DNA from: Escherichia coli
GTDB lineage: Bacteria; Pseudomonadota; Gammaproteobacteria; Enterobacterales; Enterobacteriaceae
Length of the DNA: 32,848 bases
Assembly: GCF_003334315.1 (NCBI RefSeq)
Contig: NZ_QOWR01000053.1
Strand: one strand, 5' to 3'
The notes beneath the pieces are model-generated. The model was not told the DNA's origin, did no database searches, and saw nothing but the letters and a program-made list of their open reading frames with translations. Below are positions 10,710-10,898 of this stretch, in pieces. The position numbers and the translations under genes are program-made. The stretch's first letter is position 1, and each line of letters begins with the position of its first letter.

Positions 10710-10898
10710 GCCTGATGCGACGCTGCCGCGTCTTATCAGGCCTACAAACCCGAACCGTAGGTCGGATAAGGCGTTCACGCCGCATCCGACAGCCAGCGCC
10801 TGATGCGACGCTGCCGCGTCTTATCAGGCCTACAAATCCGAACCGTAGGTCGGATAAGGCGTTCACGCCGCATCCGACAAACAGCGCCTGATGCGACG
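10710..10898. repeat. Tandemly duplicated BIME/REP unit (88-bp period, about 2.1 copies) in the cpsG-cpsB intergenic region
   Basis: gcctgatgcgacgctgccgcgtcttatcaggcctacaaa[c/t]ccgaaccgtaggtcggataaggcgttcacgccgcatccgaca recurs starting at 10710, 10798 and (partially) 10886; it also produces the two near-identical spurious ORFs 10670..10891 and 10803..11063. Confidence 0.9.

Follow-up and report, generated by a model that had tools for sequence, protein, structure and literature searches.

Organization of the cpsB-cpsG intergenic region

The cpsB-cpsG spacer occupies positions 10620-10899 (280 nt) of the window, i.e. the whole 32,848-nt stretch of Escherichia coli DNA analysed here, and separates two genes that are both carried on the minus strand, with cpsB upstream. 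Their identification as cpsG and cpsB, which an earlier reading of the sequence alone had proposed, agrees with the open reading frames (ORFs) and with the way in which RefSeq annotates a genome that is 100% identical. The features of the region, in order of position, are as follows.

9249-10619, minus strand: cpsG (phosphomannomutase), the downstream gene; ORF and RefSeq annotation of the 100%-identical genome, 1371 nt from ATG
10624-10673, minus strand: algC RNA motif (Rfam RF02929), scoring 77.3 bits (gathering score, 33.8); directly 5′ of the cpsG start
10674-10709, no strand: unique sequence separating the algC motif from the array, read from the sequence
10710-10745, minus strand: Z2-type REP of unit 1, 0 mismatches to GTAGGCCTGATAAGACGCGGCAGCGTCGCATCAGGC; predicted hairpin of −21.9 kcal/mol in the mRNA sense
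10746-10756, no strand: 11-nt linker of unit 1, joining the GTAG ends of Z2 and Y (AAACCCGAACC)
10757-10790, plus strand: Y-type REP of unit 1, 2 mismatches to the Y consensus; predicted hairpin of −19.2 kcal/mol
10791-10797, no strand: 7-nt linker of unit 1 (AGCCAGC)
10798-10833, minus strand: Z2-type REP of unit 2, 0 mismatches to the consensus; predicted hairpin of −22.8 kcal/mol
10834-10844, no strand: 11-nt linker of unit 2 (AAATCCGAACC)
10845-10878, plus strand: Y-type REP of unit 2, 2 mismatches to the consensus; predicted hairpin of −19.4 kcal/mol
10879-10885, no strand: 7-nt linker of unit 2 (AAACAGC)
10886-10898, minus strand: 13-nt half Z2 arm that ends the array; present in all alleles that have, or once had, the BIME, including that of K-12
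10900-12336, minus strand: cpsB (mannose-1-phosphate guanylyltransferase), the upstream gene; ORF and RefSeq; stop codon TAA at 10902-10900

A longer version of cpsG, which would start at a TTG at 10667 and run through the algC motif (472 aa), was discarded as an artefact of ORF extension, the RefSeq start being the ATG at 10619 (456 aa). The algC motif itself has been conserved in all the E. coli spacer alleles that were examined, as well as in five Enterobacter species. As this motif fills the rest of the spacer, only ∼35 nt are left unconstrained, and these are the site of the BIME. The whole array lies inside the spacer and is extragenic; a plus-strand ORF at 10803-11063 (86 aa) crosses the REPs and runs antisense to cpsB, and is regarded as spurious.

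According to Tandem Repeats Finder, positions 10710-10898 form a single array with a period of 88, 2.1 copies, 97% matches, no indels and a score of 357. In the output of the repeat finder, the unit copies at 10710-10797 and 10798-10885 are identical at 85 of 88 positions, and a third, partial copy at 10886-10898 is an exact match to the first 13 nt of the unit. Both programs therefore confirm the tandem repetition with an 88-bp period that the sequence-only reading had described between cpsG and cpsB, and the repeat finder returns the same copy starts (10710 and 10798, with the partial third at 10886). One detail of that reading requires correction: the partial copy is present as claimed, but it does not directly abut the cpsB stop codon, as base 10899 intervenes. 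The window contains 13 occurrences of the REP core pattern GCCKGATGCGRCG, whereas 0.26 would be expected from shuffled sequence, and the array is therefore not a product of chance.

The repeat unit is a Z2/Y pair of the BIME-2 class

Each unit comprises, in order, a 36-nt Z2 REP (minus strand), an 11-nt linker, a 34-nt Y REP (plus strand) and a 7-nt linker; this arrangement is then repeated and is followed by the half Z2 arm. The Z2 pattern GTAG GCCTGAT AA GACGC GGCA GCGTC GC ATCAGGC is found in two copies with 0 mismatches, and the Y pattern GTAG GTCGGAT AA GGCG TTCA CGCC GC ATCCGAC in two copies with 2 mismatches, the GTAG head being on the minus strand in the Z2 REPs and on the plus strand in the Y REPs. 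The linkers of BIME-2 elements are sorted in the Bachellier/Gilson nomenclature into S and l/r extra-PU motif classes. The REPs of E. coli are characterized by a GTAG head, an imperfect palindrome and an AA-GC bulge, with lengths of 35 nt for y and 37 nt for z2, and are often organised as tandem pairs of a REP and an inverted REP (PMC8266576). In agreement with such traits, the repeat unit is indeed a REP pair, as had been proposed, consisting of a Z2 and an inverted Y that are both GTAG-headed and carry the AA/GC bulge, and the array scores above the gathering threshold of the REP325-based Rfam model.

With the BIME-2 (Y/Z2) class the cps array shares GTAG-headed Y and Z2 units of 34-35 and 36-37 nt, respectively, the AA/GC bulge, alternating orientation, short linkers, an extragenic and tandem arrangement, and polymorphism in copy number. 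Nothing essential sets it apart from the class; its end by the cpsB stop codon is a Z2 arm truncated to 13 nt. It is an ordinary, textbook BIME-2 of alternating, oppositely oriented Z2 and Y REPs. It is also a dispersed repeat: at the megablast level, an 801-nt query matches a median of 11 places in each genome.

Two known arrays allow a closer comparison. REP325, located between yjdM and yjdN and the source of naRNA4, is likewise a Z2/Y array in tandem, flanked by two genes of a single operon that have the same orientation, although it contains 12 palindromic units as against 4.4 in the cps array, and the cps linker is 6 nt shorter. Dual terminator/stabiliser behaviour has been shown for REP325, whereas for the cps array we infer it. 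The BIME-2 between trmJ and iscR of K-12 (L011) comprises four Z2/Y units in tandem, each of ∼91 nt, whose parts follow one another in the same order and orientation as those of the cps array. It is 87% identical to the cps array over 197 nt, whereas the loops, linkers, period and genomic context differ.

The relationship to REP325 also accounts for a match to the Rfam family naRNA4/CssrE (RF02564), a model built on this Z2/Y BIME. A Y-linker-Z2 segment of the array at 10760-10830 scores 75.1 bits on the plus strand against a gathering score of 59.5, whereas on the minus strand, i.e. that of the operon, the score is 50.9 bits and below the threshold. The modelled sense is thus antisense to the cps operon, and the above-threshold match, which reflects shared BIME-2 DNA and identifies the repeat family, was not taken to indicate an sRNA gene.

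Unit number is polymorphic among E. coli genomes

The number of units was surveyed by searching 5,426 complete E. coli genomes with each synthetic or native allele together with 150 nt of unique flank on either side, using E-value cut-offs that are passed only by an uninterrupted end-to-end alignment. The alleles were distributed as follows.

0 units, half arm only (K-12 type): 806 genomes
1 unit: 2,667 genomes
2 units (the allele of the window): 454 genomes
3 units: 155 genomes
4 units: 4 genomes
REP-free allele, 101 nt: 514 genomes

Variation in copy number between strains, as the sequence-only reading had anticipated, is therefore extensive, the alleles with zero to four units together accounting for 4,086 genomes; five or more units were found in none of the 5,426. 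These figures are to be read as counts in a collection that samples the species non-randomly, laboratory K-12 strains and outbreak clones being over-represented. A 3-kb cpsG-cpsB query locates the locus in 4,723 genomes (4,671 at ≥80% coverage), so that the six allele classes cover ∼97% of the genomes that carry it; the remainder includes an IS insertion (H163) and an allele of 128 nt (L012). The other 703 of the 5,426 genomes gave no megablast match to the 3-kb query at E ≤ 1e-80. Stbl4 belongs to these 703, and its best match to the 801-nt query is a paralogous BIME.

Representative spacers are 101, 104, 128, 192, 280, 368 and 456 nt long. With the exception of those of 101 and 128 nt, their length is given by 90 + n × 88 + 13 nt (half arm) + 1 nt, with n from 0 to 4. 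In the 101-nt REP-free allele, the place of the BIME is taken by a small hairpin, CCGGAgaattaaTCCGG, and the stop codon is TAG. As 514 genomes are REP-free and 806 have the half arm only, ∼28% of the locus-bearing genomes have no complete REP at this position, and the array is thus dispensable.

The 128-nt spacer comes from E. coli O4:H5 CU532-9 (L012; spacer at 1372-1499 of that locus) and has kept only the half Z2 arm and a Y REP in truncated form. Its sequence is apparently that of a 64-nt deletion derivative of the one-unit allele.

Whole units are gained and lost

Pairs of genomes with closely similar flanks differ by single units. L017 (three units) and L014 (four units) show 0 differences in ∼1,070 nt of flank, and the array of L014 corresponds to that of L017 with the first unit doubled. 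Similarly, L004 (three units) and L013 (four units) differ at 1 of 468 flanking nucleotides, with an internal unit present one more time in L013, and the CpsG and CpsB protein accessions are identical in L030 (two units) and L013 (four units). The sampled two-unit arrays have at least four different unit compositions, represented by the window, L005/L020, L019 and L021. These comparisons show a length-polymorphic, minisatellite-like locus with recurrent gain and loss of whole 88-bp units. Unequal homologous recombination between units, or slippage during replication, is the most economical explanation, and at the level of sequence it is indistinguishable from the action of a REP-associated transposase because a tandem array yields an identical product whatever the register.

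The K-12 allele retains a perfect 13-nt REP half arm and no other part of the element. The preferred interpretation is a deletion remnant rather than an empty site. Between REP-free and BIME alleles, ∼20-31 nt are replaced in place of a clean insertion, and thus no target site can be defined.

A scan for outgroups with the algC-motif pattern matched only five Enterobacter species (L006-L010). In their cpsB-cpsG spacers, a single GTAG-headed palindrome is present between the cpsB stop codon and the algC motif, i.e. in the same slot as in E. coli, although it is of a genus-specific type (GTAGGCCCGGTAAGCGCAGCGCCACCGGGC) and is not tandem. The slot has thus been colonised independently by a different REP family, and the position is one that repeatedly hosts REPs.

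The element belongs to a long-known family, and polymorphism of the cpsG-cpsB spacer is already in the literature of 2011: Iguchi et al. describe REP-containing indels in cpsG-cpsB between strains, e.g. two extra REPs in PV276 (PMC3158064). That study covered six O157 strains, and the 88-bp unit, the half-arm remnant, the series from zero to four units and the allele frequencies are not part of it (PMC3158064).

The spacer is not an outlier in recombination profiles

Iguchi et al. further speculated that REPs mark recombination junctions, the REP indels coinciding with junctions of similarity (PMC3158064), and the BIME might accordingly be a preferred junction for exchange of the neighbouring O-antigen/colanic acid region. 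A Mantel comparison of 15 loci is in line with this proposal: for adjacent segments of the same gene the distance matrices are correlated (cpsG, r = 0.38, p = 0.002; cpsB, r = 0.49, p = 0.002), whereas the correlation across the spacer is r = 0.00. The positional profiles of linkage disequilibrium (LD) and of four-gamete fractions, computed on 11 full-length loci spread over all genomes, argue otherwise. Linkage is weak throughout these loci: r2 across the spacer is 0.108 as compared with a median of 0.117-0.129 for all candidate breakpoints, 20-34% of which are as low as the spacer or lower, and the four-gamete fraction at the spacer is not extreme. As the spacer is no outlier in either profile, a role of the BIME as a recombination junction was rejected and is considered very unlikely. 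The cpsG-cpsB region recombines heavily throughout, and the BIME is not detectably special in this respect.

Predicted mRNA structure and probable effect on cps expression

In the mRNA sense, the spacer folds with a predicted energy of −137.9 kcal/mol as against −106.1 ± 5.2 kcal/mol for shuffled sequences (z = −6.1), and the individual REP hairpins have energies of −19 to −23 kcal/mol. The first complete REP hairpin after cpsB on the mRNA is that of the unit 2 Y REP, whose stem begins 22 nt past the stop codon. A scan of the spacer for an intrinsic terminator and for a sigma-70-like promoter found none, and both an intrinsic terminator and an internal promoter were consequently rejected as explanations.

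On the operon mRNA (minus strand), four stable REP hairpins are predicted to form directly 3′ of cpsB. These hairpins would most likely block 3′→5′ exonucleases, an activity of which the intercistronic REP of malE-malF is the classic case, and thereby stabilise the cpsB-proximal mRNA. The array would probably also attenuate read-through into cpsG and wcaJ in part, largely by way of Rho, and the number of units would then modestly tune the ratio of upstream to downstream expression. The effect on mRNA stability and polarity that the sequence-only reading considered possible is plausible from what is published on other REPs and BIMEs. REP325 confers stability on the mRNA of yjdM, upstream of it, and attenuates yjdN, downstream, ∼8-10-fold, partly via Rho, and REPs between tandem genes are associated genome-wide with upstream-biased expression in a strongly context-dependent manner (bioRxiv 10.64898/2026.03.23.713779). 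According to the same source, terminal REPs do not generally lengthen mRNA half-life, the effects of REPs again being dependent on context (bioRxiv 10.64898/2026.03.23.713779). Taken as a whole, the reading of the locus as a BIME-2 of ∼2.15 units that varies recurrently in length and that probably stabilises the cpsB-proximal mRNA while attenuating cpsG in part is considered quite likely.

Upstream of the operon, a JUMPstart element is found at 25239-25277 (minus strand; Rfam RF01707, 57.3 bits). JUMPstart elements recruit RfaH-type antitermination, and such antitermination could blunt a Rho-dependent attenuation by the array.

Alternative explanations

The array may instead be a neutral passenger, i.e. 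a selfish or junk repeat lodged in the only ∼35 nt that are unconstrained, with a copy number that drifts without measurable effect on cps expression. That alleles with zero to four units, REP-free alleles and Y-only deletion alleles all occur in natural isolates is in keeping with this, as is the free variation of a slot that lies between a conserved algC motif and conserved coding ends, and the effects of REPs are variable and often absent (bioRxiv 10.64898/2026.03.23.713779). A repeat without effect would, however, have to be reconciled with very stable hairpins within a transcribed operon, with the ∼10-fold effects that the best-studied tandem Z2/Y BIME (REP325) exerts on its neighbours, and with the REP that Enterobacter independently keeps in the same slot, a hint that a structured element is tolerated or used there. 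We therefore regard neutrality as possible but doubtful. Much less probable is a role at the level of DNA or of a separate RNA gene, in which the array would organise the chromosome as a gyrase-binding BIME-2 site or as a nucleoid RNA resembling naRNA4. BIME-2 elements are reportedly in vivo gyrase cleavage sites, an observation attributed to Espeli and Boccard in 1997, and an Rfam naRNA4 match above the gathering score does exist. Nevertheless, this match is antisense to the operon, the transcribed strand stays below the threshold, no promoter-like site was found in the spacer, and no role in nucleoid compaction has been found for REP325/naRNA4 itself (bioRxiv 10.64898/2026.03.23.713779). A role of either kind is considered highly improbable.

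A further possibility concerns translation of cpsB. The half Z2 arm begins 2 nt past the cpsB stop codon, and structure at this position might stall terminating ribosomes, leading to mRNA cleavage and trans-translation and hence to less CpsB. In whole-spacer folds of all alleles with at least one Y REP, a pairing probability of ∼0.9 is predicted for the first 15 nt past the stop codon, where the half arm pairs with the 5′ arm of the Y REP next to it. REPs are described as lowering translation of the upstream gene only if their distance to the stop codon is <16 nt (Liang, Rudd & Deutscher 2015, as summarised in PMC12306157), whereas the first complete REP stem of the cps array is 22 nt away and thus outside the reported range. 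Moreover, a local 58-nt fold keeps the canonical Y hairpin and leaves the half arm as a weak, small hairpin, so that its pairing partner is dependent on the model. The K-12 allele with 0 units is also 0.84 paired in this stretch, in this case with coding sequence that ribosomes would melt, and the pairing measure therefore discriminates poorly. A translational brake of this kind is distinctly unlikely, and mRNA stabilisation with partial attenuation of cpsG is preferred.

A further reading, in which the number of 88-bp units and the stop-proximal half arm would constitute a heritable, rapidly mutating dial for the CpsB:CpsG ratio, is viewed as rather unlikely. Were it true, the dial would set the supply of GDP-mannose and GDP-fucose for colanic acid and, in some serotypes, for O antigen, and the recurrent gain and loss of units would amount to a tuning of the capsule between lineages that resembles a contingency locus.

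Significance

The main value of the analysis is a negative result, in that the array is a standard E. coli BIME-2. What is added to the existing literature is its exact anatomy, the half-arm remnant, the allele census and the evidence of recurrent change by single units. In practical terms, the 88-bp ladder of zero to four units, with two other alleles, offers a clean marker beside the O-antigen region that can be sized by PCR, and the natural allele series is a ready test bed for REPs as dual terminators and stabilisers. For assemblers and annotators, variation in the length of the cpsB-cpsG spacer is to be expected and does not indicate error.

Other repeat and regulatory elements in the window

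A second BIME is located at 6202-6291 and is composed of a Z2 REP at 6202-6237 (minus strand, 1 mismatch) and a degenerate inverted Y at ∼6258-6291, separated by a 20-nt linker, longer than those of the cps array. It sits between the ORFs at 4860-6140 and 6320-7798, at the wcaK-wzxC position, which Iguchi et al. 2011 list as REP-polymorphic (PMC3158064). A single Y REP is found at 21249-21282 (minus strand) between the ORFs at 20375-21214 and 21307-23505, i.e. at the wcaA-wzc position, and a single Z2 REP at 27309-27345 (plus strand) lies just past the ORF at 25653-27302, with a further half-arm match at 27705-27717. Besides the JUMPstart element at 25239-25277, another match to RF01707 is present at 873-911 (minus strand, 60.0 bits); the latter presumably heads the O-antigen cluster, and the former the colanic-acid (wza) operon.
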